From positions 33,916,001 to 33,980,000 of the forward strand of contig NC_087245.1 in assembly GCF_037042905.1 (NCBI RefSeq): DNA of 64,000 nt, in the 5' to 3' direction. Of this stretch, positions 15,469 through 55,321 are shown piece after piece (positions within the stretch are counted from its first letter, which is position 1; each line of letters opens with the position of its first letter). The position numbers and the translations under genes were made by a program. The notes beneath the pieces are model-generated. The model was given only the letters and a program-made list of their open reading frames with translations. It had not been told where the DNA came from and searched no databases. The DNA comes from Lytechinus pictus. Its lineage: Eukaryota.

Positions 15469-15499
15469 ATACAATTTTTTTGTTTTTTTGTTAATTTAG

Positions 15500-15606
15500 G
15501 TGGACATGTACAAAGGAGCATCAGATAAGAATCCCTTTGCAGAGGCCAACCCAACTAATATCTTTGGTAACAGTGTCCCGTCCCTGACTGACATTTTCGG
15601 TGCCAA
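15500..15606 (+). CDS. NUP42: NUP42 coding exon, start of FG region
   Basis: VDMYKGASDKNPFAEANPTNIFGNSVPSLTDIFGA, with TAG acceptor and GTGAGT donor. Phase 2 matches the last exon. Confidence 0.85.
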
Positions 15607-15764
15607 GTGAGTACCGTATGCGTTCAAGTTTGTAGAAAGATTAGGTAAACAGGGAATGATATGAAATGCTTAGAAAAAAATATACCAGTTAGGTACTCGA
15701 AGAATGTGAAATGTGTTGATTTGTTATGCAACAATCACTTATATATTGATTGATTTTTGTTTAA

Positions 15765-17033: not shown

Positions 17034-17202
17034 GATGTGGAAGAGGTTCATCGTGGTGAAGGATTGAGTAGAAGAAATAGCAGTTGTCTCACGATGTATC
17101 AAACGTAGTTGGAAAGCGATGTTTCGTCTGCAAGCTGCTAGACTTTGTCAGGCAATGACCAAAGACGCTGCTGCGCACAGGTTATAAACCGTCAGCAAGG
17201 CA
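17034..17202 (-). mobile_element. Penelope-like fragment with degenerate hammerhead-like motif
   Basis: Minus strand cCTGACAAa-gtctagcagcttgcagac-GAAAc, flanked by the 12-bp direct repeat ATTATTAGTGTT (17022-17033, 17203-17214). Confidence 0.5.
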
Positions 17203-18541: not shown

Positions 18542-19025
18542 CCTTGCCAACATCAAAGTGGCATCAGATTCCAACACAAGTACAGGAACAATGTTTGGGA
18601 AGCAACCACCAACAGGTTCATCTCTTCTAGGTGTCCCACCTGGGTCAGCGGAAAGCGCACCTGCCGCGCCAAGTAGCTCTTCACTCTTTAACAGAACTCA
18701 AGGTCCCACCCAACCTGTCTTTGGTGGTGCAGTTGGGAAATCAGATACACCAGCCCCTGCCTTCGGATCAGCGTCGTCCAGCAGTGCTTCTTCCGCTTCA
18801 TCGGTCTTCGGATCAGGGTCACAGACTTCTGTAGGATCCGGTACAGGTTTGTTTGGTAAAGGACCATCGACTCCAGCGGTAGATCCCCAGCAACAGAAGG
18901 CAGAGTCTAGGACTTACACCCCAATGGCTTCGCTGACTCCTGAAGAGAAGGAACAGTTTGAAGCACCGATATTCACTTTAGGGAAAGTACCTACAAGGCC
19001 ACCGCCCATTGAATTGGTGAGATGA
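18542..19025 (+). CDS. NUP42: NUP42 terminal coding exon: FG repeats and C-terminal Gle1-binding motif
   Basis: Several FG dipeptides in S/T/A/P-rich spacers. Ends YTPMASLTPEEKEQFEAPIFTLGKVPTRPPPIELVR*, like the hCG1 C-terminus (..EQF..KKFTLGKIP..PPP.ELL). Confidence 0.95.
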
Positions 19026-24652: not shown

Positions 24653-25863
24653 ATAGTAGACTTGTTAAGAGGTTGAACGCTGCATTTTTTAGTACAAATG
24701 TCCCACTTGGCACAAATGTTCCTTGAGTCAAAAGAAAAAGATTCATCCAAAGAGACACGCTGTATCTATGCAAATAAGCAAGTAATTTGCATAAATTTGC
24801 ATATTATGTCGATATAGTAAAAACAAGTATTTCAGAATATATATTTAACCAGAACTGACCTAAAATTGGAAATAAAGACTTAGGGTAAGAAAGGGAAGAA
24901 AATTGAATAAAATGATTGGGATATCCTTGTTTATTATTACCTAATTTACATGAATTATGCAAATTATAATTCATAACAAAGTATTTTTTCATGAATCCTG
25001 AACTGTTTCATAAATAACAGCAATTAATACACAATGTCAACATTCTACATGAAAGAGAATATATTAGCGAAAACGTCGATATGCTTCATGACAGTATTAG
25101 TGTCTTAATTTGAGAGGGCAAATATGTCAAAATATATGACGTGATATTGCGATAAAACGAGACCAAAATGTCACAGTCACACTCACGAATAGGACAATAA
25201 AGCGATCAATGGTATGTCATTCGAGATAACACAATCCCAACACAATTATAGCTTCCATCGGCTTCTCGTATCGCTTTTGTTGGTGTGTCTGCCACACCGT
25301 ATTCTATGATACATATGGACAAAATGCATTTCGGTATCGGTGAAACACTTTTAATTTTGTTTTATTTGTTTCTAATTTGTTTCTCTTGGAAAAATTTACA
25401 GGAGACATTGCTTTGCAGGTTACTGCTTTAATGAAACTCTGGCACATGAATCATGACGAATGTATCCTACCTCAATCCATATTTTAACTTTATTAAAATA
25501 TATATCTTTTGGAGACCCCGAAGTGGCAAAACTGCATCCCCCCGGCATTCCCGCCACCTTACAAAACCAGTTTGACTTGTATAATCGACTTGGAAAAGAC
25601 AGATGTATGAGACATCAGTCAACATGTTTCCTATAGAAAGTTTTTTGTTTATTTAAGCCTACGCCAACGGGAGCCCTCCGAATTTACCCCATCCTCTCTC
25701 CGTATTTCGACTTTAAATAAAAAAATATCGTGTTTTAAAGCCATCGGCAAGGCAAATTGCGTTTTTTGGTATGATAAAGCAACTTTTATATCTATATTTT
25801 TATATTTACATTCATCATTATTGATATTATTATAATTATTATTGATATTATTATCATTATTAC

Positions 25864-25909
<46 letters not shown>

Positions 25910-27763
25910 GTTCTGCCGTTTGTAATAATGCTCTAGCACAGTAAAGGCAATAACCCAACAGGAGCATGCCAAGGATACCCTTTCCCTTTTTGGTTTTATG
26001 TAATAAAAAATAGTTTATTATCTTTAGAACTCTTAATAGATTACTTTTGTTTGTATTAATATCTTGGAATAGATTGAGGAGAAAATACTCTACAACTGAC
26101 ATGTAGAGGAGCTGTGGTACATTGAATAAAAGCCACACAGCCCTTTATTGATTCCACCCTATGTTAAATTTAAATATTTTTAGAGCCCAGTCGGAAGAAA
26201 GATGCATTTCTACTACACACAGTAAAGCCTCTTTGCGTTCTCCTCTTGAAAAAAACAAACATAGAAGGCATTGTTTTATATCTCATAAAATAAGTTCGTG
26301 TACGTGACGGTGGCCTGTCGAAGTTGCCCAACCGTTTATTTTGTTTTGACAATATGTATTTAGAATATCGTCTAAACGAAGCCCTCATCTGGAAAAGGGC
26401 ACTTATTAAAGGCAGCATCTACATTATATAGAGGGAGCCCTGGCACTGGGAAGAGGGGGCTGAAGCTTGTTAAATTTCTTGGGACCAAAATTTTACATTG
26501 AACGTTTTTCGCTTTTCAAATTTACATCAAGAAATTTAACAAGCAAATAAACAAAAAGGATTGCACTACAAAATGAAGTTTTTTTTGGTAACGTTTCTTT
26601 TTTTTCGTTTTGTCACATCTGCCGGAATTCCAGGGGGTGCTGCCTATGGAGAATAACACACGCAGCAGACCCCCCCCCCCCTCCGGAAAATACTGCGGGT
26701 GCTTCAACCCCCGCTTCCAAGTACCAGGGCCTCCTATATATAATGTAGATGCTGCCTTTAATAAGTGCCCTTTTCCAGATGAGGGCTTCATTTAGACGAT
26801 ATTCTAAATATATATTGTCAAAACAAAATAAAGGGTTGGGCAACTTCGACAGGCCATCGTCATGTACAAACTTATTTTATGCGATATAAAACAATGCCTT
26901 CTATGTTTTTTTTTTCAAGAGGAGAAAGTAAAGAGGCTTTACTGTGTGTAGTAGAAATGTATCTTTCTTCCGAATGGGCTCTAAAAATATTAAAATTTAA
27001 CATAGAGTGGAATCAATAAAGGGGTTTGAGTATTTTAGAGCTTACGTGTGGCTTTTCTTTAATGTACCACAGCTATTCTACATGTCAATTGTAGAGTACT
27101 TTCTCCTCAATCTATTCCAAGATATCAATACAAACAAAAGTAATCTTTTAAGAGTTCTAAAGACAAACTATTTTTTAATACATAAAACCAAAGGGGAAAG
27201 AGTATCCTAGGCATGCTCCTGTTGGATTATAGCCTTTACTGTGCTAGAGCATTATTACAAACTGCAGAACAATAATAATAACATTGATAATAATGATAAC
27301 AATAATAATAATAATAATATTATTATTAATAATAATAATATTAATATAGATACATATGAAATACAAATTAAGACACTATTACTGTCATGAAGCATATCGA
27401 GGTTTTCGCTAATATATTCTCTTTTATGTAGAATGTTGACATTGTGTATTAATTGCTGTTATTTATGAAACAGTTCAGGATTCATGAAAAAATACTTTGT
27501 TATAAATTATAATTTGCATAATTTATGTAAATTAGGTAATAATAAACAAGGATATCCCAATAATTTTATGTCAATTTTCTTCCCTTTCTTACCCTAAGTC
27601 TTTATTTCCAATTTTAGGGCAGTTCTGGTTAAATATATATTCTGAAATACTTGTTTCCACTATATCGACCTAATATGCAAATTTATGCAAATTACTTGCT
27701 TATTTGCATAGATACAGCGTGTCTCTTTGGATGAATCCTTTTCTTTTGACTCAAGTCTACTAT
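24653..27763. mobile_element. ~3.1-kb foldback element with ~1-kb inverted arms
   Basis: About 24723-25112 mirrors 27362-27755, and about 25830-26466 mirrors 26700-27345. Ends TAGTAGACTTG / CAAGTCTACTA. Confidence 0.85.
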
Positions 27764-29074
27764 AAGGGGGCAGTCAGTTAGAGGACCTAAAAGATGGCGT
27801 CATTTTTCTCAATCGAACCGGGATATAAACGATCCAAAAGTCTCGGTGACTTTTACGTTTTTCTATGTTTAATATATTCTTCTTTCCATTCCCCCACTGT
27901 TCCCTTCCAATATAACATGGTGGCCACTGCCCAGATTAATACTCTATTGAATCTTTTAATCCACCTCATAACCAATGAATAAACTTCATGACAAGGAATC
28001 CAAATTAATTCATGAATTCGTTCTGGCAAGCTAGCCGAGAGCGAACAAAACGGCTTGACTTAAGGAGTGCTACACACCTGTTACAAGGTTCTGTGATGGG
28101 TCAGAAAGTATTTTGCCTATGCCAACAACAATATATGTTTCACTGATCAGGGGAGCATTTCACGACACAAGTTATTTTCACGGACTATTGTGATAAGCTA
28201 CTAAAATCCACACACCCCATTGGCTCAGAGCCAATAAGTCATTGAAAATCATTGACTATTTGTTTCATGAAATACCCCCCCCCTGCCTTGGTTATGTCCA
28301 GTGAAAATCCAGGTGGATAGAATATTTCGACGTCAAACAAATCTTTTGGTAGTGTTGCCTATTCAACTGACCGTTTTACTCAATTCGAATTTATATATCC
28401 GACTGAACAAAAAGGTGCATGGTAGGGGGCTGAAGGTGGGGGGATAGCCCCGAAGATTTTTTTTTATCAGTTGTTTAACAAAATACGAAGGGTTTAAGAT
28501 TATTGTGATCTCCATCAGTCATCTATGCAGACAAAGTGCTGATTTCGATATTTTATATTTTACTGAAATTAAAAAGGGAATATCTTGATACTGATGAAAC
28601 ACCAACGTCGTTCTGTCTGGGGTCAATTCTTGCACTCTCCTATCCTATCTGATCAAGGGGAGGGGGCGATCCGCCCCTTAATAAGAAGGAAATTATGTAA
28701 TTCTTTAATATTTGGGATACAAGGAAGATAGCATTAGCAATTGTTTCATGCCCCTCCCCATTTATGAAATGCAGTACCCGCCCCTAGTGACCAGTTACGT
28801 TCAGCTTGACTGGTTGTTTGGTCGTTGTTTGACGTTTCGCGATGCCGTGCAAAGGGATAGCATACCATGCTTAAACGTTGATACGTCGGAATAAACATCT
28901 TTTGTTCTAGCATGGCGCCACGGCTGACTTCCAAAGAAGACCGCATGGTCTGAATGCGAAGATGTATTCATCCGCGCCTTTTCAGCTCCTCTTCAGTTCA
29001 ATTGTATGTTTGGATGAGGGTTAGAATTCCACGTTTATCAGTTTCATCCTTCAAATTTAGACAATGAATGTCAT

Positions 29075-30850
29075 CTGAAAGGCAAGCAAAGAGGTTAGTT
29101 TATTCTCTAAATCTTTTATTTTTACGAAATATTATAAGGCATAAAGTGAATTTTTAATCCTTTTTGTTACTTGACACAGACAAAAATTTTGTTAATGTAA
29201 AGGGCATATAAGCATGTGAAGGCTATGGTCAAATGTATTTTACATTTACATTGAATCGTAAAGATAGATAATGAATCTTGTTTCTCGAAGGTTGAATTTC
29301 AATGTTATCATTAATTTACCTTTGCATTGGATTAAAACAGAAGGCGGAGCTTTATTTATTGAAGAGTGAACTTAAATTGAAATAATTGTGCGATACAGTA
29401 AGTCTTTGAATTCAAGTTTAACCAGGAGACAGTATCAACCAGAAATGGACAAGATGTCCACTCCGATAAATAAATGAAACTTACGACAAAAGTTTTTTGA
29501 AATCATATCTGATAAGACACAATATTTAAGATATCTGCCCCTAACAAAAAACGTTCAGAGCTGAAAGACTCCCATTTTGACTGGCCATTTGTATTTTTTT
29601 AGGATAGGTCGGCCTCGAAACAGCAGGAGAGATACTGAATAATTTGAGACAAGGAAGCAACTCGACAGATATTGTAAGATCAGCCGAGAACGGAAGGCAT
29701 GATATCTTCCTGCCGATAGCCTATCCTGTACTTAGAGCGGTGGAAGATCTTGGTAAGTAGATACTTTATAATGGAAGCATTTTCTACAACTTGATAACAC
29801 TTTTGTATCCTTTTTAGTATTCGATGCAATCTGGGCAAAATCGTGAATTTTGACACCCCCGCCCCCCCCCCAAAAAAAAAAAAAAGATTGGCACAACCTG
29901 GAAATAATATCAAAAGGATAATGAAAACAATTATATTGACTTGTAACCATCTTTAGAAAGTCAACTATTATATTATGTGCTTGAGGTTTCAGCAAAAATC
30001 AGCATATTTTTAGGGGGTCTTAAATCATTTAAGGTCTCGATTTTGAGAGAACGAAATTACCACTTGTTCACTGCAACCATCCTGCCTGTGGGGAATCTAC
30101 AGGTAGGACTATGGTATGCCAATGCTGTCATAGCTCACAATTAAAAAAATCATTAAAATATCACTTTTGTGACCAAAATCACTAATTTCCATACAGTTTT
30201 ATTTATTTTTCATTAGTAACTTGGGAATATTTTTTGTATTCACCAGAGCACTCAAAAACATGAATTTTGGGTGCAAAGTAATATGGCAAGAAAATTTTCA
30301 TTTTTCAATCTTTATTTTTAATTAAGAAAAAATTATTTAAAGAATCAAATTTACATTAGAGCAAAGCTATATGATAAATAGCTGTATTGGAAACTGACAG
30401 TGTGAGAAAATCAACAATTTGTCCCATAGAAAAAGAAAATTAGCCAAAATTGCCACCCTTATTTTGCCACACATGGATATGTAACTGAGAACAAGGTTAT
30501 ATCAAAACCTTGTTCATTGAATGAGTGGAAATTACATGAATATCATACGTTTTACACGTGCACGTGAAAATCCAGTAGCTTGTAAGGCATTTTCTGTTTA
30601 AAATTGCTCTAGTATGACAGTATTAAAAGCGTAAGGAAGGTATGACATTTATTTCCCCTCTGTTCATTGGCGGCATGAGGATGTGTGTGTGTTTTGGGGT
30701 TTTTTTTAAGCTGGGGCGCGGGCAGTGAACGGTAAATGAAAATGTTTTAGGACAAGAGAGGATGGATTTACTTTACATCTCTTTAATTCTTAAAAATTTC
30801 TGAGGGGGGCAATTTCCTCATGCGCCCCTCACCTTGTTGCCGCCACTGCC
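29075..30850 (+). repeat. Diverged direct repeat, copy A (copy B at ~54190-55290)
   Basis: Colinear shared blocks gaaaggcaagcaaaga, cctcgaaacagc..gagatactg, ttttacacgtgcacgtgaa and ttgccgccactgc. Confidence 0.7.
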
Positions 30851-33514
30851 CATCCCGCTCTCTTTCTTTCTCTCTTTCACATTCTTCGATCTCACTAACG
30901 CAAATTTTATATTGTAATTAGCTGCCAGTAAATATATGAAATAACAAAGCGAGGTATTTCAATTTTGCGTTCAACCAGAGAATTTCGTATATTTCACGGA
31001 TGCAAGCACACGCTCATTAAAAAAGACGTAGATTTCACGACCCATTGGCCGTGTTGACGGATGAAGTGTGTGGGGCACGTGCGGACTGTCATATCATTTT
31101 ACGCAGGCATGTCACTAAACACTGACTTTAAACCCATTTTCCAATCTCTTCATGGGGATACTCCGGGGGAGCGCTTTATCAACATTTTCGTCCGACAAGT
31201 TGAGGAATCAAACAACTTCCCTTTATTTTGATTGGCTAGGAAGCATTATTACAATGGTAACTGTCGGATAAAATATAAAATGGGTTTTGTCGGATAAAAC
31301 GTCAGACAAGTCCTTTCGTAAAATGCCCCCCCCCCCCCCCCGGCTGAAAATAAAAAGTTTTATCGAATAGAATAAAATCATATACCCCAACACACTGAAT
31401 ATTTGATCGACATCAGATAATGAACAACGAATTTGAAGTTATCTAAAATTGTCGCGTTATTTTCAAACAATTTTAAGCATGTCTTTATAAATATACAATG
31501 AGCTAGCTTAGCTGATGTCATCTCATGCATTTATAATTTTGTATTTTCTTTATTATGAAAGTATATTTTTTAACCTTTTCCTTCAATAATATAAAACCAA
31601 GATTGACTACTGGTTTCATTTGAAAGATATAAGTAGCAAGGACCAAGCAATTAAGTCAGTTTGCGAAGGTTGAATGATTTTAGTCAACTGTCGTGCATTC
31701 AGATTAAAATTATATCTTATGTGTAATTAAATAAAATAAGTTGAATTTGAAAATTTGATGACATTCTGACAACAGAGGGTTGGTATTGAATATTAAATTT
31801 TAGCACGAGGCCTAATATTCAATCCGTCATGAATATGTATTATAAAAAATGGGCTGATATTAAATACCCATTTTCACTTTTTATTGTATTCCATATTATT
31901 GTAACTATTTCATGATTTTGGTTTAATATAAACAAGAGTAAAATTTACAGCAAAATGCTGAACATTTCATCAAAATCTGAAAACAATTAACTGTTATTGA
32001 AATTTAAAGATTGGCAATATTTTATCCGACAATACTTTTATGAATTCGTCACGAATATTCATTAGGTGAGTTAATGTAATGCCCCCACTTTCTCCTTTCT
32101 TACATCATTACATGAAATCATAATTATTTCACATTTTAATATGCGTGTGTATAATATGTCTCCCTTATAATGAAATCAGCAAAATTATCTAATGCAATGA
32201 TTCAGCTGTCGTACCATTTTTTTTTATTGTTGGGGGACAAAATTTGAATAAACATATTTAATTTATTTATTTCATACAATAAAATATAAAAGTGGGGATA
32301 TGACATAAATTTGCTTATCAAATATTGAAGAAATGCATTGAACTTATTCACCGAAATAATGCAGATCTTTATCGTGTCATTAATTTGATATTCCTTGTCC
32401 AATTTTGATCAAATCTGCAGTGTTTTGTCCGTCTCAATTTTTTTATCTGTTCAAATCATTTTTCAGCCTGTAGCACTCCTTTGAATCAGGATAATACCAA
32501 TTTTGGCATAATAACGCCGATAACTAATTTTAATTACGTTTATAATCAATATTGTTCTGGTATTCACAATCCTTTTGTGTGTTTTATTCAATTCCACAGT
32601 TTTGACGGATTTGGGGAGTTCGCAAGTTATCCAGAATTCGCTTCGAAAGTTGGAAATGGAGATGGAATGAAAAGTACGACACACGTTTCCTCAATAAAGA
32701 CTTGGTCTGTGTTCTAATTCAGACATTGTCGATTTCACCACAGCCAAAATACCACACCTCCTCCAATGCCGTAACATCAGTGAGAAGTGCAGCCGGGGAG
32801 ACCTGGTGGCTTCAGATAAGAAGGCTGCATTTGTAGACTATGGACACGAAGAACGGAGAACTTGTTAGTAACATTCTTTGCGATACATTCCTTGCTCTAC
32901 TGCACAGGTGCATGTTACGCTATTGGCGCCAACTGCAGCATCCATCTCACCAAAATTAATGCGTCATATTTTAAGTCATGTGATCAAGCAGAATCCTTTC
33001 TCCCCGAGGACGGACAGGCACAACAGGTCCAACAATACAGAAGCTGCTCAAACGGGATATAATTTATATTTAAGAAGATATCTTTGGTAGTCGGCGAATC
33101 TTTATCCATTTGGAATATCAACAGAAAGAACTTGAGATACAGGATCACTTTGCGAACTTTTTCTCCGACAGAAACTCTTTAATTGTTATGTGCGGACTAG
33201 AAAACTATTTTCACGGCAGAGCTTCGCCGAGGCTAATCCGAACCCCAGCCCTAGCTCAGTCACGGGAGGTTTGTTGATGGGTCTCAAGACGGTTGTTCTG
33301 CCCTTGATTTATAAATTTGAACTTGATAATTTTGTGACTATCAGCGGACAGACATGTTTGTGGAGCTTTGGAGAAATATTTCTTTATTGGATCATATGAA
33401 AAATTGTGAAGTTGCTGAATATGTGTTGGATCATGGATGCATGACGACGCCGTCAAAGAGAGGACAGATGAACATGCTGAGACTGATCAAACGTTGCTGA
33501 ATGAGTGAGTCCTT

Positions 33515-33756
33515 TTACCCGTAGAACAATACAGCAATATCACTTAATGGTCTTAATGAAACTTTAAAATCTATGGAAACTGGTTAAGTTTAGGTTTTAG
33601 TGCCAGGATTCGTAGCGTAAGTTGATTTTATAGCCCCCCCCCCCCCCTCCCCGTAGGTGTAGAGTAGGCGCCTGGCCGAAACCAATTCTTTGGCCCTTTT
33701 CCATAAAATTTAATGTGTCATGTCAAGAAGATTGCTGTGTTGTCGCCTACGGGTAA
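33515..33756 (+). ncRNA. Conserved long RNA hairpin, copy 0 (most divergent)
   Basis: TTACCCGTAG/CTACGGGTAA, ACAATACAGCAAT/ATTGCTGTGTTGT, TATGGAAA/TTTCCATA, GCCAGG/CCTGGC. A poly-C run sits in the apical loop. Confidence 0.65.
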
Positions 33757-34974
33757 TGAAATTCAATTCATATTTTTTTTTAATGTTCGCCGAAAGCTTT
33801 ACAACTTTTTTTAATAAAAAGGTGGTAAGGCTTTTACTCTTTCCCGACAATTCTCGTAGAATTGTTCGTTGGTGTATTCAATCAGGGGCGGTTCCACTTG
33901 GAGAGGGCACCTATGCTCTGGGAACGATTTTTTTAACAGGATGTGCCGATTCAAATTTGACAAGCAAAAAAAAGGTTTCCCTTCACAACGAAGGTCATTT
34001 TGTTAACGATAAATTTAACAAGCAAAAAAAAAAGATTTCGCTACAAAATGAGGTGATTTTGGTTAAATTTATGTTATTTAGCATACCAGATTTCTAGGGG
34101 TGCTGCCTATGATGAATAACACACGCAGCACCCCCGCTTTCCAGAGCGAGGGGCAGGGGGCCTCACCCCCGATGAAAAATCAACACACAAAAGAAAAGAA
34201 AAAAAATAACGATAAGACAGTATTTAAGTTTTGGGTCGTTAAACTCTAAAGACCCCTATAATTGAATTGATAAAATAATACTATCATCGTTTTGGTAGTC
34301 TTGCCCCTAATACCCTGGCACCGCCCCTGAATGAAAAAAAAAACTTTCACATGCCAAGATATTGGCTGGTGAAATTTGCGTAAAAACGATCGAACGATAT
34401 TCGATATTTCGCATCCGAAACTGGACATCACGTTTGTCCATACCCGATCCGTATGATTACAAGGTGAGTTTCATTTAATTTTTGTTCTTGTTTTAATTTC
34501 GCATATTTCAATTGGGCATGGCAAGTATATTCGTTAACTTCTGAATACTACATTCCTTCATTAAGAATAAAGTGGTGCAGTGCACAGTCCCAAAATATAA
34601 AACCATACAGAATTATTTCGGTAATCCTCAATAAGTCAAGTATAATTGAGATGGATGGTTTATTAAATGATAGCTAAAATGAGTGACAAAGATCCAATAT
34701 TCAATGTCAAATGATGGAAAGGGCAATAGTTCAGAATTCCACAAACTGATATATGTTAGAACCTAGATCTTTTTGTTAATCCATGCTCAGATGGTAATTT
34801 CCGTAGATCTTGTTCTACAGTAGTCCCAAGCACAGTCCCACACACGTAATAATAGAAATAGATCTAGAGATCGTTACCATGGTTCCCATCGTGGATGGGA
34901 AAGGGCCATGGGTGCATAAAGTGGGGTAGGTGATGATAACGATAGACTACTTGACAGAAACCTATCTTTCTTTA

Positions 34975-36850
34975 GGTTTTTTTAGAACCTAACAGAAACA
35001 GAAGACCTTGCTGAAACAAACAGGTTTATGATGATGATTATTTAAAAAGTAATGAAAATGAAGTTTATTTAGAATCTATCTGATACAGAAATCCTCGCTA
35101 AAACCAATTTGTGAAGATGAGTATGAAAGTGATTATACTGATAATGTTATCAAATAGGGAAAAATGAAGTTTATTTAGAATCTATCTAATACAGAAAACC
35201 TTGATGAAACAAAAAGGTTTATTTTAAAAATGATGACCATAGCCAAGTATGAAAGACAATGTACAGTAAGGTATTTAGATTCTAACTGAAACAGAAAATC
35301 TTTGCGGAAACGAATAGGTTAATGATGATGAATATGAAATGGCAAAAAAACCTTGCTAAAACAATGGTTTATGATTGATCATAAAAATGATGATCATTGC
35401 CAAATATGAAAGAAAACGTATTGTATTTAGAATCTAACTGAAACAGAAAACCTTGCTGAAACAAAAAAAAAGGTTATTGATGGTGACTATAAAAGTGATT
35501 ATGATTATTGTTGTCCAATATAGAAGAAAATAAAGTTTATTTAGAATCTAGCTGAAACAGAAAACCTTGCTGAAACGAAAAGGTTTATGATGATGATGAT
35601 GATGATGAAAGTGATTATAATGATGATTATTGTCAAATATGACAGACGGTAAAGTTTATTTAGGATCTATCTGATACAGAAAACCTTGATGAAACAAAAA
35701 GGTTTGATTATTATAAAGATGATGATCATTGCCAAATATGAAAGAAAACGTATTGTATTTAGAATCTAACTGAAACAGAAAACCTTGCTGAAACAAAAAA
35801 AAAGGTTATTGATGGTGACTATAAAAGTGATTATGATTATTGTTGTCCAATATAGAAGAAAATAAAGTTTATTTAGAATCTAGCTGAAACAGAAAACCTT
35901 GCTGAAACGAAAAGGTTTATGATGATGATGATGATGATGAAAGTGATTATAATGATGATTATTGTCAAATATGACAGACGGTAAAGTTTATATAGAATCT
36001 ATCTGATACAGAAAACCTTGCTGAAACAAAAAGGTTTGATTATTATAAAAATGATGATCATTGCCAAATATGAAAGACGCTTTAGTGTATTTAGAATCTA
36101 ACTGAAACAGAAAACCTTGCTAAAACGAATAGGTTTATGATGATTATTATTAAATGACAGAAAACCTTGCTGAAACGAAAAGGTTTATGGTGATTATTGT
36201 ACAAATAAATGATCATTGATAAATATGAAAGACAATGTAGTATATTTATAATCTAACTGAAACAAAAAAAACCTTGCTGAAACGAAAAGGTTTTTTTTAT
36301 GATAAAAATGATTATAATGATTATTGTCAAATATGACGGACGATGAAGTTTATTTAGAATCTAATTGAAACAGAAAACCTTGCTGAAACGAAAATGTTCA
36401 TGATGATGATGATTTTTATGATTATTGTCAAATATGAAATAAAATTAAATTTATTCATAATCTAACTGAAACAGAAACCCTTGCTAAACAAAAAAAGATT
36501 ATGATGAATACTATGAAAGTGATTATAGTGATGATATTTGTCAAATACGAACAAAAATTAAGTTTATTTAGAATCTATCTGATACAGAAAACCTTGCTTT
36601 AACAATAAGGTTTATGATGAATGGTTTATCAAGATGATTATTCTAAAAGTAATGATGATCATTGTAAAACATGACATACGATGAGCTTTATTTAGAATCT
36701 AACTGATACAGAAAACCTTGCTGAAACAAAAAGGTTTATTATGATTATGAAAGTGATTTGATGATTATTGTCAATTATAAAAGACAATGAAGTTTATTTA
36801 GAACCTTGCTGAAACCATGGATCTACTACTAATGTCCATGCTGAAACAAA
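34975..36850 (+). repeat. Intronic ~110-bp degenerate tandem array
   Basis: Unit tttatttagaatctaactgaaacagaaaaccttgctgaaac..ggtttatgatg, with a near-exact 333-bp higher-order duplication (35391 vs 35724). Confidence 0.9.
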
Positions 36851-37167
36851 GAGTTCCGTGATGATTGTAAAAGTGATGATAATGATCTTTCCCAAATATA
36901 AGACAAAGAAGTGTGCTTTATATGCTAGAGTGCATAAGTCATTTACGTGATCAACAATTATTATCAAATTCAAGCTATTTCATTAACCTTGTTCTTATTG
37001 TGTGTTTATGTTTCAGGTATGGCATGCTAAAAAAAATCTACATGATACACTGACACGTTTAGGAGACGTTTGGATTGTAAAACAAAAAAAAATCGTTGCA
37101 TTTCTTTTCGGCCTGTTGACCTGAGTTAACCCCTTTAACGTGGGCAAAATTCTGCGAGAATTATTTA

Positions 37168-37384
37168 CCTGTAGAACAATACAGTAATATCACTTCATGA
37201 TCTTAATGAAACTATGAATTTTATCGAGCTTGTTTGTTGAGGGCAAGTTTAGTGTCAGGATTTCTGGGTAAAATTCATACATTAGGTCCCCGTTAGGCGC
37301 CTGACAGTTTAAGCTTGTTCTTAAACTAGCTCGTTAAGATTTATTGTTTCATGTCAAGAAGATTGCTGTATTGTCGACTAAAGG
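37168..37384 (+). ncRNA. Conserved long RNA hairpin, copy 1 (exon-like unit 37017-37633)
   Basis: Nested complementary blocks with many G-U pairs. The unit is bounded by a TTTCAG acceptor and a GTAAGT donor. Confidence 0.65.
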
Positions 37385-37791
37385 ATGCTTATTTTCAACG
37401 TGATTGGGATAGTTCGACTCAAAATTGTTGAGGTTATGCCTGATTTAGGCCAAACTATCGATAGCTTTTTTGCGTTCTGACGTTATACTTTTGATTAGCA
37501 AAAATTATATAAAAAGTCGTTGATTCGTTAATTCTCTTCGTGCGATCGTATGTTTCTCGCTTTTAATGGTCATTCTCAATCTCAATTTGCACATCATAAA
37601 TCATCGATCGTCTCGTTCGTTTGAATGATCGCGGTAAGTTTAAAATCATTACCACTCTTTGAAAATCTCTTTACTGATATATTTGTCTATTGATTTATTG
37701 CTATAATTCAAATTTCGTAGTTTGGATGTAGGCCTAACATTTTTATGTAGAGCAACATTATAATGCACGTACATGTAATGCTGTGATGGAA

Positions 37792-38792: not shown

Positions 38793-39011
38793 ACTTGTAG
38801 AACAATACAGTAATATCACTTAATGATCTTAATGAAACTATGAATTTTATCGAGCTGGTTTGTCAAGGCCAAGTTTAGTGTCAGGATTTCTAGGCAAAAT
38901 GTATACATTAGGTCCCCCTTAGGCGCCTGACAGTTTAAGCTTGTTCTTAAACTAGCTCGTTAAGATTTATTGTTTCATGTCAAGACGATTGCTGTATTGT
39001 CACCTAAAGGT
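38793..39011 (+). ncRNA. Conserved long RNA hairpin, copy 2 (unit 38664-39258)
   Basis: Same fold as copy 1, with splice-consensus boundaries. Confidence 0.65.
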
Positions 39012-40202
39012 TGCTTATTTTCAACGTGATTGGGATAGTTCGACTGTCTCGAAAAAACAGTTGAGGTCGGACTCGTTTGTTTTTTTGCGTTCTGACGTTA
39101 TACTTTCAATTAGCAAAAATGCGTTGTAAAAAGTCGTCATACGTTAATTCTCTTCGTGCGATCGTATGTTTCACGCTTTCTCGCTTTAAATCGTCATTCT
39201 CACAGCTCAATATGCAATTCATTAGTAATCGATAGTCTCGTTCGTTTAAATGATCTCGGTAAGTTTAGATTAATTAATACTCTTTTCATATTACATTTTA
39301 AACATCAGTCACTTCATTCGTTTGATTTAGTGTTGTAATTCAAATTCCGTAATTTGAATGTAACATTTTTATATTGAACCACGTTTCCATGCACGTGCAT
39401 GTAATGCTACGATGGAAACAGTTCTTAGTAAAATTATCTTAAATCTTATAAATATGAAAAGGCCTTCAGAACAACTAGTTATATACAAAGCGCTGAATTT
39501 GATAATGATGAAACTAGAGCTAGTAGCGACATTAATATGATCCTAGATGATACTTGCAGGTAATGGAAGATATCTATTATTCCAGCATCAAAAGGTGGAT
39601 AAGGACAAGATTTGTTCAGAATTTCACAACTTCATTTATTTTAGGCCTAAATCTTAATATGCTGAGAAGGAAATTTTTGTAATTCTTATTCGACAGTTTG
39701 AAGCTATAACAACAGTCCCACACATGTAATGACGAAATGGATTTTAGAGGCCGTTGTCATGGTGAATAGGCATGATAGGAAAGAGCCATAGACCCGTACA
39801 GTACAGTAAGATAATGATAACAGTAATAGCCTACCTGACAAAAGCCAACTTTCTTCGGTTATTTAGAAACTAACTGAAAAGAAACCTTGCTGAAACAAAA
39901 AGGTTTATGATGATTATGAACATGATGAAAGTGATAATTGTCAAATAGAAATAACACTGAAGTTTGCGTTATATTCTAGATCTAGTGCATAATTTATATA
40001 TTAGATTAAGAAACCATTATCAGAACCATGCTTTTCATTAACATTGATATTTTTGTGTTTATGTTTCAGGTATGGAATGCTTAGAATATTTACATGATAC
40101 AAGAGGCGTCCGCTAGATTGTAAAAAAAGGATCGTTGCTTATGTTATCGGCCTGTCGACCTGAGTAAACATGGTAAACCTCATACATGAGCAAGAACAAG
40201 TT

Positions 40203-40421
40203 ACCTTTAGAACAATACAGTAATATCACTTCATGATCTTAATGAAACTATGAATTTCATCGAGCTGGTTTGTTGAGGCCAAGTTTAGTGCCAGGATTTC
40301 TAGACAAAATTTATAGATTAGGTCCCCCTTAGGCGCCTGACAGTTTAATCTTGTTCTTAGACTAGCTCTTTAAGATTTATTATTTCATGTCAAGACGATT
40401 GCTGTAATGTCACCTAAAGGT
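40203..40421 (+). ncRNA. Conserved long RNA hairpin, copy 3 (unit 40070-40667)
   Basis: Basal stem ACCTTTAG/CTAAAGGT and the same fold. Confidence 0.65.
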
Positions 40422-41649
40422 TGCTTATTTTAAACGTGATTGTGATAGTTCGAATGTCTCGAAAAAACAGTTGAGGTCGGACTAGTTTGTTTTTTGCGTT
40501 CTGACGTTATACTTTCAATTAGCAAAAATGCGTTGTAAAAAGTCGTCATACGTTAATTATGTTCGTGCGATCGTATGTTTCACGCTTTCTCGCTTTAAAT
40601 CGTCATTCTCACAGCTCAATATGCAATTCATTAGTAATCGATCGTCTCGTTCGTTTAAATGATTTCGGTAAGTTAGATTGATTAATACTCTTTTCAGATT
40701 ACATTTTAAACATCAGTCTCTTCATTCGTTTGATTTAGTGTTGTAATTAAAATTCCGTAATTTAAATGTAACATTTTTATATTGAACCACGTCTCATGCA
40801 CGTGCATGTAATGCTATGATGGCAATATTGTTCTTAGTAAAGTTATCTTGAATATTGGAAATATGAAAGAGGCTTTAAACTAATCGGTTAATACAAGAAG
40901 CTAGATTTGATAATGATGATAATCAACCTAGAGGCAATATGATATTAGGTGATTACAAGAAGTGGCAAATATCTAATATTCAGTGGTAAGAGCAGTTTAG
41001 AATTTAACAACTTTATATATTTTAGTCCTAGATCTTTTTTTTAAGATGCTCAGATGGGATTTTCGCAATTCTTGTTCGGCAATTTGAAGCTATAACAGTC
41101 CCACGCACAGTCCCACACACGTAATGGTTTAGAGACCGTAGCCATGATGTTACTCAAAGAGTCATGGATAGGAAAGGGCCATAGGCCTGTAGAGTGGGGA
41201 AATAGCAGTCAAAGCTTACATGACAAAAGCCTAATTTCCATTCGGTTATTTAGAACCTAACTGAACCGAAACTTTGCTGAAACAAGAAGGTTTATAATAA
41301 ATATAATACTCAAATTTTATATAGCGCGAATTAAAGTTAAGTCTATTTACGATTACGACAGTGATGATAATGATGATGATCATTGTTAAACAAGACAATG
41401 AATTTGTTTTATATTCTAGATTTAGTGCATATTGCATTTATGCTTATTATATTTAGAAACAATTATCAGAACCATGCTATTTCAATTACGTTGATCTATT
41501 TTGTGTGTTTATATTTCAGGTATCGAATGCTCTGAATACCTACGTAATACAGGAGGCGTCTAGATTGCGATAAAAACATAGTTTCTTATATTACCGGCCT
41601 GTCGACCTGAGTAAAAATGGTAAACATCATACATGAGCAAGAACACTTT

Positions 41650-41868
41650 ACTTGTAGAACAATACAGCAATATCACTTCATGATCTTAATGAAACTATGA
41701 ATTTTATCGTGCTGGTTTGTAAAGGTCAAGTTTAGTGTCAGGATTTCTAGGCAAAATGTATACATTAGGTCCCCAGTAGGCGCCTGACAGTTTAAGCTTG
41801 TTCTTAAACTAGCTCGTTAAGATTTATTATTTCATGTCAAGAAGATTGCTGTAATGTTAACCACAGGT
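41650..41868 (+). ncRNA. Conserved long RNA hairpin, copy 4 (unit 41520-42108)
   Basis: Basal stem ACTTGT/ACAGGT and the same fold. Donor GTGAGT at 42109. Confidence 0.65.
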
Positions 41869-43019
41869 TGCTTATTTTCAACGTGATTGGGATAGACTGT
41901 TTCGAATAGATGTTGAGGTTGTGCCTTATTACTATCTTAGCGTTTTTTACCTTATGACTTTAGATCTTCAGTTAGCAAAACTTCCGCTGTTAACAATCGT
42001 TCATTCGTTAATTCTCTTCGCGTGATCGTACGTTTCTCGCTTTTAATCATCCTCATCAGCTCGATAAGCACATCATAAATCATCGACCGTCTCGTTCGTT
42101 TGATCATGGTGAGTTTAAAATCTCTAACAATTTTTTGGATTTTTTTTTTACAAGCACCGATTATTGCTATAAGTACATATATTTATTGATTTATTGCTGT
42201 TATTCAAATTTTCGTAATTTTAACTTGAAATTTTTATTTAGAATATTCTCATGCGCATACATATAATGTAGTGATTGAGACATTGTTCTAAAGTGTTTGG
42301 TACCGCAAAATCGTTCAATAGCCATTAAAACGGACATACTGATGCTTTTCGACATGCACTCATCGAAGTAAAATCGCATGAATTAATAGAACGCTAGAGC
42401 GAAACAATATATTATGGAACCGAAAGAGACAATGGACGCTAAACGGCGAGCTGTGATTGTCAGTTTGTTCGATTTAAGGCTATTTTATGACATTGTTCTT
42501 AGTAAAATTATTTTGAATTTTATACTAGTTATACAAAGCACTCAATTTTATAATGGTGATTATGAAACTATGGTAGCAAAAACATTGATTTGATATCAGA
42601 TCTATTTCACAAATAGAAATAACGAGTAGGCCTAGAATACATCAATTGACAACATTCTATGGAAGCTTATTTTATATTCTAGATCTATATGGTATATGTA
42701 ATTATAATTCAAGTATAATCAAAATGCCACTCAATCATCAGAAAAAAAAATATGTATCTTCTTGTTACAGATCTGTAATGGACGGTCAATACATCTTCGC
42801 GCAGTTTTGGAGAGAAGTTTCCGCAACAATGTTGAATAGGAAAAAACTAAAAATAAACCAAGCTCTGCGCAAGCCACATGCCTATGGAACAAAAAGGAAT
42901 GTCACAGCAACGCACATATAACTGAACATTTTATGAAATATCTAAAGAGGAATAATGGTATTAGAGTGAGGTTGAAATTAGGTTATGATCGACATCATAG
43001 AGTAACACGGGACATTTCA

Positions 43020-46000
43020 TCTACAACATTTTGTCGCCTTTTCATCTACAAATCTTCGTCAACCTTTCTTCAAATATCTACCACTCTTTGTCTCCCTTTC
43101 ATCAAATATCTACCACTCTTTGTCTCCATTTCATCACAGAACAAGTCACCTTTCATCTACCACTCTTGTCACCCTTTCCTCATAGAGCATCAAGCCACCA
43201 ATTATCTTCCTTTCATATATCCCTTTCATCAAAGATCATCAATTCACTTTTCGTAACCTTTCATCAAAGAGCATCGAGTCACTTTTCGTCACCCTTTCAT
43301 CAAAAGCATCAAGTCTATTCATCTGCCTATCATCAGAGAGCATCAAATTCACCCTTTGTCAACCTTTCATCAAAGAATATCAAGTCACTCTTCATCAACC
43401 TTTCATCAACGAGCATCGTAACTTTTCGTCACCCTTTAATCAAAGACCATCAATTAACTTTTCGTCACCCTTTCATAAAAAAACACTAACACCTTTCGTC
43501 ACCCTTTCATCAAAGAGCACTCAGTCACTCTTCGTCACCCTTCCATCAAGTCATCATTCATCACCCTTTCAACAAAGAGCACCAAGTCTCTTTTCGTCTC
43601 CCTTTCATCAAGAAGCATCAAGTTGCCCTTCGTCACCCTTTCATAAAAGAGCATCAAGTAACTTTTCGTCACCCATTCATAAAAGAACACGTCTCTTTTC
43701 GTCTCTCTGTCATCAAAGTGCATCAATTCGACCTTCATCTCCCTTTGTTACCCTTTCATCAAAGAGCAACGAGTCACTCTTTGTCGCCCTTCGCCACCCG
43801 TCACCCTTTCATAAAAGAGAACCAAGTTATTTTCATCACCCTTTCAACAAAGAGCATTAAGTCTCTTTTCGTCTTCTTTTCATCAAGAAGCATCAAGTTG
43901 CCCTTCGTCACCCTTTCATCAAAGAGCATCAAGTCACCCTTCGTCACCCTTTAATCAAGGAGCGAAGAATCACTCTTCGTCGCCCTTTGTCACCCTTTCA
44001 TAAAAGAGAACCAAGTCATTTTCGTCACCCTTTTACCAAAGAGTATCAGGTCGCCCTTTGTCACCCTTTCATCAAAGAGCATCAAGTCACTCTTCGTTGC
44101 CCTTCGTCATCCTTTCAAAAAAAAGAGCAATTCATTTTTCATATACCACTCTCCATCTCCCTTACATCAAAGAGCATCAATTCACTTTTCGCCACCCTTT
44201 CATAAAAAGAGCATCAAGTCGCCCTTCGTCACCCTTTTATCAAAGAAGATCAAGTCATTTTCGTCACCCTTTCGTAAAAAAGCATCAACTCTTTTTGTAT
44301 CCCGTCATCAAAGAGCAGAAAGTCGCCCTTCGTCACCCTTTGATCAAGGAGCATCAAGTCAATCTTCGTCACCCTTTCATCAAATAGCAACATGTCAGTT
44401 TTCGTCTCCCTTTCATCAAAGATCATCAAGTCGCTTTTTATCTACCACTCTTTATCTCCCTTTCATCAAAGAGCATCAAGTCACTTTTCATCTTCCTTTC
44501 ATCAAAGAGCATCAAGTCACTTTTCGTCTCCCTTTCATCAAAGAGCATCAAATCGCCCTTTATCCCCCTTTCATCAAAGAGCATCAATTCACTCTTCGTT
44601 GCCCTTCGTAATCCTTTCAAAAAAGAGCAATTCATTTTTCATCTACCACTCTTCATCTCCCTTACATCAAAGAGCATCAATTCACTTTTCGCCACCCTTT
44701 CATAAAAAAGCATCAATTCGCCCTTCGTCACCCTTTTATCGAAGAAGATCAAGTCATTTTCGTCACCCTTTCGTAAAAAAGCATCGACTCTTTTTGTATC
44801 CCGTCATCAAAGAGCATAAAGTCGCCCTTCGTCACCCTTTGATCAAAGAGCATCAAGTCAATCTTTGTCACCCTTTCATCAAATAGCAACATGTCAGTTT
44901 TCGTCTCCCTTTCATCAAAGATCATCAAGTCGCTTTTTATCTACCACTCTTTATCTCCCTTTCATCAAAGAGCATCAAGTCACTTTTCATCTTCCTTTCA
45001 TCAAAGAGCATCAAGTCACTTTTCGTCTCCCTTTCATAAGAGAGCATCAATTCACTTTCGGCACCCTTTCATAAAAAAGAATCAAGTCGCCCTTCGTCAC
45101 CCTTTCATCAAAGACAAACGAGTCAATCTTCGCCGCCTTCGTCATCCTTTCATATAAGAGCACCAAGTCATTTTTCGTCAACCTTTCTTAGAAGAGCATC
45201 AAGTATCACTTTTCGTCACCCTTTCATAAGAGAGCATCAATTCACTTTCAGCACCCTTTCATAAGAAAAGAATCAAGTCGCCCTTCGTCACCCTTTCATC
45301 AAAGACAAACGAGTCACTCTTCGCCGCCTTCGTCATCCTTTCATATAAGAGTACCAAGTCATTTTTCGTCAACCTTTCTTAGAAGAGCATCAAGTATCAC
45401 TTTTCGCCACCCTTTCATAAAAAGAGCATCAAGTTGCCCTTCGTCACCCTTTCATCAAAGAGCATAAAGTCGCTTTTTATCTACCACTCTTTATCTCCCT
45501 TTCATCAAAGAGCATCAAGTCACTTTTCATCTTCCTTTCATCAAAGAGCATCAAGTCACTTTTCGTCTCCCTTTCATAAGAGAGCATCAATTCACTTTCG
45601 GCACCCTTTCATAAAAAAGAATCAAGTCGCCCTTCGTCACCCTTTCATCAAAGACAAACGAGTCAATCTTCGCCGCCTTCGTCATCCTTTCATATAAGAG
45701 CACCAAGTCATTTTTCGTCAACCTTTCTTAGAAGAGCATCAAGTATCACTTTTCGTCACCCTTTCATAAGAGAGCATCTTTACTTTCGGCACCCTTTCAT
45801 AAGAAAAGAATCAAGTCGCCATTCGTCACCCTTTCATCAAAGACAAACGAGTCACTCTTCGCCGCCTTCGTCATCCTTTCATATAAGAGTACCAAGTAAT
45901 TTTTCGTCAACCTTTCTTAGAAGAGCATCAAGTATCACTTTTCGCCACCCTTTCATAAAAAGAGCATCAAGTTGCCCTTCGTCACCCTTTCATCAAAGAG

Positions 46001-48165
46001 CATAAAGTTACTCTTCGTCACCCTTTCATCAAAGATGATCAAGTCATTTTCGTCACCCTTTCGTAAAAAAAAGCATCAAGACTCTTTTTGTATCCCGTCA
46101 TCAAAGAGCATAAAGTCGCCCTTCGGCACCCTTTTATAAAAGAGCATCAAGTCACTCTTCGTCACCCTTTCATCAAATAGCAACATGTCAGTTTTCATCT
46201 CCTTTTCATCAAAAATCATCAAGTCGCTTTTTATTTACCACTCTTCATCTCTCTTACATCAAAGAGCATCAATTCACTTTTCGCCACCCTTTCATAAAAA
46301 AGCATCAAGTCGCCCTTCGTCACCCTTCCAATAAAGTGTGTCAAGTCGCCCTTCGTCACCCTTCCATCAAAGATCATCAAGTAACTCTTCGTCACCCTTT
46401 TATCAAAGATCATCAAGTCACTCTTTGTTGCCCTTCGTCATCCTTTCATAAAAGAACATCAAGTCACTTTTCATCTACCACTCTTCATCTCCCTTACATC
46501 AAAGAGCATCAATTCACTTTTCGCCACCCTTTCATAAAAAAGCATCAAGTCGCCCTTCGTCACCCTTCCAATAAAGTGTGTCAAGTCGCCCTTCGTCACC
46601 CTTCCATCAAAGATCATCAAGTAACTCTTCGTCATCCTTTCATATAAGAGCACCAAGTCATTTTTCGTCACCCTTTCATAAAAAAAGCATCAAGACTCTT
46701 TTTTGCATCCCGTCTTCAAAGAGTAAAAAGTCACACTTCGTCTCCCTTTCATCAAATAGCATCGAGTCACTTTTCGTCTCCCTTTCATCAAAGAGCATCA
46801 ATTCACTTTTGTCCCCTTTCATAAGAGAGCATCAATTCACTTTCGGCACCCTATCATAAAAAAACATCAAGTCGCTCTTCGTCACCCTTTCATCAAAGAA
46901 CATCAAGTCACTTTTCATCTACCACTCTTCATCTCCCTTACATCAAAGAGCATCAATTCACTTTTCGCCACCCTTTGATAAAAAAGCATCAAGTCGCCCT
47001 TCGTCACCCTTTCAATAAAGAGTATCAAGTCGCCCTTCGTCACCATTTCATCAAAGATCATCAAGTCTCTTTGTTGCCCTTCGTCATCATTTCATAAAAG
47101 AACATCAAGTCACTTTTCATCTACCACTCTTCATCTCCCTTACATCAAAGAGCATCAATTCACTTTTCGCCACCCTTTCATAAAAAAGCATCAAGTCGCC
47201 CTTCGTCACCCTTTCAATAAAGTGTGTCAAGTCGCCCTTCGTCACCCTTCCATCAAAGATCATCAAGTCACTCTTCGTCATCCTTTCATATAAGAGCACC
47301 AAGTCATTTTTCGTCACCCTTTCATAAAAAAGCATCAAGACTCTTTTTTGTATCCCGTCTTCAAAGAGTATAAAGTCGCCCTTCGTCACCCTTTCATCAA
47401 AGAGCATCAAGTCACTCTTCGTCTCCCTTTCATCAAAGAGCATCAATTCACTTTCGTCCCCTTTCATAAGAGAGCATCAATTCACTTTCGGCACCCTATC
47501 ATAAAAAAAACATCAAGTCGCCCTTCGTCACCCTTTCAACAAAGAGCATCAAGTCGCCTTTCGTCACCCTTTCATCAAAGAGCAACGAATCACTCTTCGC
47601 CGCCCTTCGTCACCCTTTCATATAAGAGCACCAAGTCATTTTTCGTCACCCTTTCTTAAAAGAGAATCAAGTCTCGTTTCGTCCCCCTGTCATAAAAGAG
47701 CATCAAGTCTCCTTTTGTTTACCGGTCATCGAAGAGCATCAAGTCGCCCTTCGTTACCCTTTCATGAAAGAGCATAAAGTCACTCTTCGTCACCCTTTCA
47801 TAAAAGAGCATCAATTCATTTTTCTTCATCCTTTAATAAGAGCATCAAGTCTCCTTTCGTCTCCCCCCTGTCAAAGAGCATCAGGTCGCCCTTCCATCAA
47901 AGACCATCAAGTCGCCCTTCGTCACCCTTTCACCAAAGGGCATCAAGTCACTTTTCATCTCCCTTTCATCAAAGAGCATCAAATCGCTCTTCATCCCCCT
48001 TCAAAGAGCATCAATTCACTTTCGTCACCTTTTCATCATAAGAGAGCATCAATTCACGTCCGGCACCCTTTCATCAAAGAGCATCAAGTCTCTTTTCGTC
48101 ATCCTTTATTAAAAGAACATCAAGTCGCCCATCATCACCCTTTTGTCAAAGAGCATCATGTCATC
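43020..48165 (+). repeat. ~5.1-kb minisatellite of a 36-bp unit with higher-order duplications
   Basis: Consensus CGTCACCCTTTCATCAAAGAGCATCAAGTCGCCCTT. Longer periods of about 499 (44381/44880), 540 (44941/45481) and 240 bp. Confidence 0.97.
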
Positions 48166-48649
48166 CTTCTTCTAGCGAAAAGGGTAAGTTATAACTGATA
48201 GTTTTAAACGATACATCTTGGTTTGACATTAATCAAATCTATAAAAGGGTACAATATATGAAACACATATTTAACGTGTTCAATGATGTCCATTTTTAAC
48301 AAATATGAGCAGGAACGAAATGATATTAGATGAAAAAGTAAATTTTCATGTTTCAGTAAATTTGAATGCATCCCCAGATATTTCAAATTTGATTAAGAAA
48401 GTAAAATATTGTCATTAACATATTTCATTTATTAAGTTTAGTCTCTGATTTTGAAAGGAAGATCGAAAATATATTTGGTCGGGCCAATTTAGAATGAAAA
48501 TGCCTATATATATATATATATATGTTATTTGATGTTTATTTAGCAGATAAAATAAGAGTCATATGTAATCACTTTTTAATATGTCATAAATTTGACAATA
48601 CTGTTTTTTTATTTACTCAGGGGAGCTTTTAATATTTCATTCTGATATA

Positions 48650-55290: not shown

Positions 55291-55321
55291 CTTCTCTCTT
55301 TCTCTCCCCCTCTCTCCCCCC

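Follow-up and report, generated by a model that had tools for sequence, protein, structure and literature searches.

A predicted intronic hairpin RNA family of Lytechinus pictus with a possible binding pocket for the U2 snRNA 5′ domain

RNAs that pair with the U2 5′ domain and the hairpins of this locus

In the literature consulted, the RNAs described as pairing in trans with the U2 5′ domain are of two kinds, U6 and the guides of the box C/D and H/ACA types. Helix Ia of U6 pairs with U2 G25-C28 (PMC13019295, in part), and the two snRNAs also form U2/U6 helix III (PMC7960923, in part). Among the guides, SCARNA9 (mgU2-19/30) is assigned Gm19 and Am30 and SCARNA2 (mgU2-25/61) is assigned Gm11, Gm25 and Cm61 (PMC7960923, in part), and intronic box C/D scaRNAs including mgU2-47/U90 carry long apical hairpins (PMC4041459, in part). 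A precedent for pairing that remodels a target without modifying it is snR30/U17 (PMC7601244, in part).

The window analyzed here, a 64-kb stretch of animal DNA with few long open reading frames, contains five copies (0 to 4) of a fold-back sequence of 220-240 nt, referred to below as the rod (Table 1). Judged by its sequence, the rod is predicted to be an unannotated hairpin RNA under structural selection. A conserved segment in its 5′ strand is tentatively read as the left strand of a putative U2-binding pocket in a predicted intronic long hairpin RNA, and the probability of this reading is put at roughly 0.4. By analogy with the systems above, the rod RNA would likely work like a scaRNA or an snR30-type guide without being a member of either group.

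The rod resembles the U2 box C/D scaRNAs in the U2 stretch addressed, the long apical hairpin, the predicted intronic location (as for SCARNA9, mgU2-47 and U90) and the presence of one paralogue per intron. Unlike in these RNAs, its two antisense pieces face each other across one loop and would bind contiguous U2. Box rules for C/D and H/ACA RNAs were taken from the available parts of PMC6770171, PMC5733568, PMC7601244 and PMC4041459. No C box (RUGAUGA) within one mismatch was common to the copies in the five rods, and a CUGA D box was not in place, CTGA occurring within the rod only in block C of copies 1-4 and being absent from copy 0. A GU/UG wobble stem, sought as a run of at least three GT/TG repeats, was lacking in all five rods, and block B resembled the fly extended CAB consensus, by eye, only with one or two extra U. 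A simple scan of the + strand of 27.8-56 kb revealed no C/D-type guide against U1, U2, U5 or rRNA. By the fifth-nucleotide rule, AUGA after the left element would point to U2 A26 and A(A/C)GA to G20 through a G-U pair, each one nucleotide off vertebrate Gm25 and Gm19 and in the same direction.

As in an H/ACA pocket, both loop strands hold adjacent target stretches (U2 22-33 on the left, 15-21 on the right). Unlike an H/ACA RNA, the rod has no conserved second hairpin and is gap-free at C21-U22, with no unpaired U-N. At 14-16 nt below the pocket top, a position inside the lower stem, none of the five copies had an H (ANANNA) or ACA box, and none was shared downstream. Whereas snR30 pairs with 18S rRNA at the basal side of its loop, according to the available part of the source, the rod would pair with U2 at the distal side. 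Like U6, the rod would pair overlapping parts of U2; unlike U6, it has no Rfam U6 match, extends over 220-240 nt and is predicted to be intronic, the two being compared by these features.

Several other RNA classes were considered. If a small stem-loop flanks the long hairpin at a three-way junction, as drawn in the first-pass annotation of this DNA, the rod resembles telomerase CR4/5 with its P6.1. This candidate was rejected because the helix order fits the - strand only, where copy 0 breaks the stem, because there is no H/ACA domain and because the element occurs in five copies. A telomerase template was sought in the rod by eye only and none was seen, and echinoderm telomerase RNAs are described as lacking P6.1 (PMC8480181, in part). 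SECIS, hammerhead, K-turn, iron-responsive element, 7SK GAUC helix, histone downstream element and transposon terminal repeats with target duplication were discarded by inspection against their consensus. No matching case was present in the available parts of PMC3884663 and PMC6298559.

Table 1. Positions of the hairpin copies, of the elements of copy 0 and of the predicted exons, numbered from the first base of the window.
Feature	Position	Strand	Remarks
Hairpin copy 0	33517..33754	+	most diverged copy; apical loop with poly-C expansion
Hairpin copy 1	37167..37385	+	left loop strand 37189-37205, right 37353-37359
Hairpin copy 2	38793..39011	+	left loop strand 38815-38831, right 38979-38985
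Hairpin copy 3	40203..40421	+	left loop strand 40225-40241, right 40389-40395
Hairpin copy 4	41650..41868	+	left loop strand 41672-41688, right 41836-41842
Upstream U2-complementary 10 nt, copy 0	33523..33532	+	10/10 with U2 nt 36-46, U2 C40 bulged, colinear
Lower stem 5′ strand, copy 0	33526..33538	+	13 bp, partner ~33731-33743
Basal loop left strand (17 nt), copy 0	33539..33555	+	contains the proposed side stem-loop 33539-33551
Mid-helix 5′ strand, copy 0	33556..33595	+	7 invariant nt first, then diverged yet paired with compensatory changes
Apical block B, copy 0	33596..33610	+	14/15 columns invariant; possible 21-nt 5p arm begins here
Apical block C, copy 0	33665..33677	+	11/13 invariant; partner of block B; possible 22-nt 3p arm begins here
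Basal 3′ block, copy 0	33718..33738	+	20/21 invariant
Predicted exon 3′ of copy 0	33860..34463	+	acceptor 105 nt below hairpin; GTGAGT donor 34464; sequence-based
Predicted 135-nt non-coding exon after copy 1	37499..37633	+	branch-like CTGAC, pyrimidine tract, AG; GTAAGT donor
Predicted 145-nt exon after copy 2	39114..39258	+	sequence-based
Predicted 145-nt exon after copy 3	40523..40667	+	sequence-based
Predicted 133-nt exon after copy 4	41976..42108	+	sequence-based

Host, fold and conservation of the five copies

Copies 1-4 are located inside a tandem unit of 1.4-1.6 kb and are 76-88% alike. Copy 0 has little besides the hairpin in common with them; its upstream flank aligned like shuffles (z -0.5 to 0.3) and its downstream flank gave a weak alignment to the other copies (z 0.7-3.6). 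Because copies 1-4 are so closely related, the set amounts to about two independent lineages. A sixth hairpin copy was not found by nhmmer within the 64-kb window. The exact hairpin pattern matched no locus in metagenomes, and gapped hairpin patterns retrieved 59 metagenome and 10 viral loci, none of them homologous (best nhmmer E 0.052 among the 69 loci). Rfam covariance models gave no match at gathering score in the 64-kb window, and sub-threshold hits around copies 0 and 2 were taken as chance. No description of the hairpin family was found in Rfam or in the literature searched, in which subscription journals were thinly covered.

Downstream of each of the five copies, an acceptor-like AG at 101-113 nt opens an exon-sized stretch that ends at a GTRAGT donor. 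Exon length, measured in four cases, was 133-145 nt, and three of the four lengths are not divisible by three; for this reason the host was read as non-coding and the rods as intronic. The rods are thus predicted to be intronic in a tandemly duplicated non-coding host. An alternative exon layout would be a single 600-nt exon starting from an acceptor about 150 nt upstream of copies 1-4. At this distance from each of the four copies (37018, 38663, 40070 and 41520, + strand), a strong acceptor directly abuts a donor-like GTATGG, which reads GTATCG in copy 4, and the juxtaposition resembles a recursive splice site. The predicted exon after copy 0 is split by a 447-bp inverted-repeat insertion (33883-34329) that has terminal inverted repeats of 9 bp and an AAT duplication.

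Folding of the rod was better than chance in copies 0 and 2, the two of the five for which shuffle-based z-scores were obtained (z -5.1 and -7.8, respectively; 0 of 200 shuffles each). In a consensus of 75 pairs, 92.5% of the cells were standard pairs, as opposed to 33-43% in slid controls. Changes on both sides of a pair were seen in 6 of the 75 pairs, three of them mid-helix, a number reached by 1 of 500 shuffles; the kinship of the copies inflates these counts of compensatory change. The + strand was predicted to fold better than the - strand by 12-27 kcal/mol in copies 1-4, and copy 0 folded equally on both strands. The ratios of G-U to A-C oppositions were 9:1, 10:3, 10:6 and 8:2 in copies 1-4 and 5:5 in copy 0.

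Four conserved blocks are opposed in the fold, forming a basal and an apical module with a diverged mid-helix between them. In the basal module copy 0 matched the other copies at 59 of 63 columns, compared with 38 of 77 in the mid-helix (Fisher p 4e-9); the apical module was likewise conserved (25 of 28 columns, p 2e-4). The conserved sequences of the five copies included TCTTAATGAAAC, with five exact matches, and CATGTCAAGA(A/C)GATTGCTGT, found in all five. No clear target of the apical blocks emerged from the RNA panel (animal rDNA, 5S, U1, U5, part of U3, and U2). Block C contains a self-complementary 8-mer, AGGCGCCT (33665-33674 and equivalents), that is unchanged in all five copies and could allow kissing or dimerization.

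The first-pass annotation had interpreted ATCA-CTT(C/A)A-TG(A/G)T in the 5′ strand as an invariant side stem-loop without counterpart on the 3′ arm, making the hairpin a three-way junction and the functional core of the element. The motif is indeed present in all five copies (33539-33551, 37189-37201, 38815-38827, 40225-40237 and 41672-41684), and its single stem change is the one described, U-A to U-G in copy 0. Folding analyses did not predict a stable side stem-loop: its pair probability was 0.00-0.10, forcing it cost 1.8-6.6 kcal/mol, the stem alone had an energy of +0.5 to +1.1 kcal/mol, a 4-bp hairpin arose in 19-30% of shuffles of the 17-nt strand, and the stem contained no compensatory change. 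A partner on the 3′ arm does exist in the RNAalifold consensus, which is linear and pairs CUU(C/A)-A-UG(A/G)U with GUCA-A-GA(A/C)G, leaving two 4-nt bulges. This pairing had a probability of 0.98-0.99 in copies 1 and 4 and was weak in copy 0, and two loop transversions disrupt its register, which is evidence against the linear fold. With the left strand 53-66% unpaired, a fair description of the basal region, as modelled, would be a conserved, metastable 17x9 internal loop.

The segment was also not better conserved than its surroundings, as had been proposed, since 11 of its 13 columns are invariant and so are 48 of 50 in the rest of the basal module (p 0.19). Nor does the upper stem diverge freely; the sequence of the mid-helix shifts while its pairing is kept, including the three double-sided changes there. 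What stands of the original proposal is a conserved functional core beyond what a simple inverted repeat would account for, the basal module having been selectively conserved among the paralogues while the flanks of copy 0 barely align. The intramolecular three-way junction is not supported, being disfavoured in all five copies and without covariation.

Complementarity to U2 and its chance expectation

The two strands of the basal loop jointly pair with U2 nt 15-33 at 19 of 19 positions in all five copies (ΔG -22.0 to -22.6). The duplex consists of 17 Watson-Crick and 2 G-U pairs (16 and 3 in copy 0) with one 3-nt bulge. In copy 0, positions 33541-33545 of the left strand pair with U2 nt 33-29 and 33549-33555 with nt 28-22, the bulge lying between them, and 33722-33728 of the right strand continue gap-free with nt 21-15. 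The long stem would thereby enter between U2 C21 and U22. The three variable positions of the loop are all tolerated by this pairing, because the C/A sits in the 3-nt bulge, the A/C faces C14 just beyond the duplex and the A/G exchanges an A-U for a G-U pair. Conservation does not single out U2, however, since positions of the module that do not pair are equally conserved.

The longest unbroken run on one strand was 8 bp. The 7-bp run of the right strand was kept for 4 of 9 distinct U2 5′ variants, namely those with a UUUU loop, in a comparison from which two non-U2 rows were excluded. Ten nucleotides just upstream of the loop continue the complementarity (Table 1), and in the free RNA the last 7 of them belong to the lower stem, which would need to open. 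Opening was predicted to cost 9.4 kcal/mol for U2 and 3.1-7.5 kcal/mol for the loop, less than the duplex energy; the net gain is modest, with junction penalties still to be subtracted.

The U2 sequences were those of other animals, obtained from loci in bacterial genome assemblies, and Rfam confirmed 18 of the 20 scanned. A gapped pattern built from words of the window with U2 in mind, and so not blind, returned 94 loci in bacterial assemblies and no viral loci. Several of these bacterial genome assemblies contain eukaryotic DNA, including tandem U2, U1, U5, U3 and 5S genes and whole rDNA units, and their U2 genes are evidently eukaryotic contamination. U2 39-47 is identical in Lytechinus variegatus, urchin nt 1-38 lying outside the file concerned (PMC4640811 S1, in part).

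The pocket score was reached by 0 of 642 decoy tiles of the window and by 1 of 600 dinucleotide shuffles of U2; under three scoring schemes it was reached by 0 of 1280 window tiles and by 0-1 of 438 microbial tiles. Two joins built from the rod as controls remained unmatched (p 0.5-0.8). At decoy sites, the 8/8 left run occurred 47 times in 127,954 and the 7-bp right run 122 times in 127,978, and the two were never adjacent. Among 209 tiles from the animal rDNA unit, 5S, U1, U5, part of U3 and U2, a panel without U4, U6, U7 and the minor snRNAs, U2 ranked first with a score of 28 versus 20 and a ΔG of -22.0 versus -15.9 for the next.

The fitted tail probability was ~0.001-0.003 per target of U2 length (192 nt) and became ~0.05-0.13 when we extrapolated it over ~8 kb of rRNA and snRNA. 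Corrected for search space, the significance of the U2 match is modest, and U2 was proposed as the target post hoc with loop boundaries of our own choice. The 5′ arm alone was not significant against U2 (p 0.05-0.11), the extended U2 path was equalled by 2-3 of 1280 window tiles, and the upstream 10-nt segment had a conditional chance of 2.3-7.9%. Counting action in trans and in cis together, the complementarity, as read from the sequences, has about an even chance of being functional.

In the mechanism proposed for the pocket, splicing of a + strand host transcript would leave the rod as a stable intronic RNA. Its weakly structured loop would open and U2 would be laid across both strands, with the long stem between U2 C21 and U22. 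The resulting three-way junction would be intermolecular and would resemble an H/ACA pocket without the unpaired uridine. If a three-way junction forms at all, it is more likely this intermolecular one, in which each of the two loop strands pairs with U2 and the long stem is the third arm. Both U2 stem I and the branchpoint-interacting stem-loop would come apart on binding, and the U2 segment modified at Gm19, Gm25 and Am30 in vertebrates would be held in the pocket, most likely to be presented for modification or refolding while U2 matures. The upstream 10 nt may lengthen the contact to U2 36-46, approximately where we take helix III to be located on U2, and the apical module would be a protein-binding or localization element. 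Free or immature U2 would be the likelier partner, because U2 nt 25-45 form a protein-supported BSL in the mature 17S snRNP (PMC13019295, in part).

Several points count against the U2 pocket. With no C/D or H/ACA box, stabilization of the rod RNA is without explanation; copy 0 has no strand preference, and there are only about two lineages. It is doubtful that the rods are the first members of a box-less, intron-encoded and tandemly amplified RNA class that would clamp the U2 5′ domain (nt 15-33, possibly to 46) and act as a chaperone, as a non-canonical G19/G25 methylation guide with shifted box spacing or as a U6-like decoy keeping U2 inactive. If they were, two-strand pairing in a single loop without boxes would broaden the forms of snRNA guide or chaperone, and such RNAs would escape box-based annotation. 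They would also offer a handle on the role of the extended stem I of free U2 and on U2 refolding in biogenesis and recycling, questions left unanswered in the available part of PMC13019295. If the U2 match is due to chance, the rods would still constitute an unannotated, structurally selected hairpin family, and the side stem-loop would be of little interest.

Alternative readings and the surrounding DNA

Since no panel RNA emerged as a target of the apical module and its geometry is pre-miRNA-like, the main rival is a small-RNA precursor. In this reading, which is unlikely overall, the rods would be intronic pri-miRNAs or related precursors in tandem cassettes; the apical module would be the pre-miRNA, the basal module would serve in processing or protein binding, and the U2 match would be a coincidence. 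Blocks B and C both start with U and, in copies 1-4, would yield a 21/22-nt duplex carrying a 2-nt 3′ overhang on either end, joined by a 25-nt loop. The conserved portions of the 5p and 3p candidates are their 5′ parts, and the basal 3′ block is exactly 21 nt long, begins with U and varies only at position 12. The primate C19MC cluster consists of tandem non-coding cassettes with one intronic miRNA each. The present locus shares with these cassettes the repeated exon-intron unit and the one conserved hairpin per intron, but its hairpin is two to three times longer and conservation is strongest at the base.

Typical animal pri-miRNAs do not have such a long stem with a conserved module below the cut, whereas about 35 additional bp and the more strongly conserved module of the rod lie beneath the predicted cut. 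Furthermore, the 5p candidate varies at position 8, the basal and apical blocks of the 3′ arm are 76 nt apart and thus out of a 21-22-nt phase, and no Rfam family at gathering score accompanies the miRNA reading, which would also leave the U2 complementarity unexplained. Among sea-urchin miRNA texts, the candidate miRNA words were absent from three small supplements of PMC3247247 and from the main text of PMC3048847, and a literature search with them matched one unrelated paper.

It is quite unlikely that the side stem-loop forms after all, probably with a protein, so that the junction would be a protein-binding or tertiary motif and the U2 match fortuitous. Every one of the 20 side-stem cells and of the 15 in the adjoining 3-bp helix is a standard pair, but invariant pairs carry no information for structure. 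Both transversions fall at sites that are unpaired in the side-stem fold and paired in the linear fold, which speaks for the side stem; an open, U2-paired loop tolerates them equally. The fold costs just 1.8-2.4 kcal/mol in copies 0, 2 and 3, but 6.6 kcal/mol in copies 1 and 4, and the low pair probability, the positive energy of the stem alone, its frequent occurrence by chance and the lack of compensatory change described above also argue against it.

Still less probable is a loop without specific function, in which a decayed fold-back element or an antisense U2 fragment was tandemly copied and homogenized by gene conversion. The locus is rich in recent tandem duplications and inverted repeats, the independent copies are few, copy 0 has no strand bias, and the colinearity of the U2-matching pieces fits descent from U2. 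By inspection, however, the match to U2 stops outside nt 13-46, and four opposed blocks with a compensated, diverged helix, in a copy 0 whose flanks have decayed, are impossible from one conversion tract.

Improbable, finally, is action of the U2 pairing in cis, as a docking site or decoy ~130-300 nt upstream of each 3′ splice site that would tune exon inclusion: the spacing from hairpin to acceptor is constant in all five copies, no boxes are needed and the evidence for U2 complementarity applies equally, but mature U2 is probably inaccessible, since nt 25-45 lie in the protein-supported BSL (PMC13019295, in part), and the host has no evident coding output to regulate.

The surroundings of the rods include a gene for a NUP42-like nucleoporin (11188-19025, + strand), whose last coding exon (18510-19025) is 98% identical to a Lytechinus pictus protein. 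A 3-kb palindrome at 24722-27755, with arms 88-97% complementary, resembles a fold-back transposon. A minisatellite of ~16 units of 100-120 nt (34976-36821) arose by amplification of a sequence that the 1.4-kb unit contains once. On the - strand at 56800-58940, broken reading frames resemble, by eye, the reverse transcriptase of a non-LTR retrotransposon, Pfam giving no hits on pieces of them.

Between an acceptor and a GTAAGT donor at 42771-48183 (+ strand) lies a 5.4-kb block of 36-nt C/T-rich repeats. Because 29 of 66 repeat spacings are not multiples of three and all + frames contain stops (28-42), the block resembles a giant exon made of repeats in a non-coding RNA. The adjoining stretch 48190-53400 contains a 1.1-kb tandem duplication and has 22 acceptor-like sites and no GTRAGY donor on the + strand (2 and 2 on the - strand); it is possibly an array of alternative 3′ splice sites or of decayed exon-junction repeats. 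The stretches 29056-30878 and 54182-55314 are ~70% alike in patches, each with an exon-like stretch ending in GTAAGT, and are perhaps the paralogous 5′ ends of two non-coding genes.
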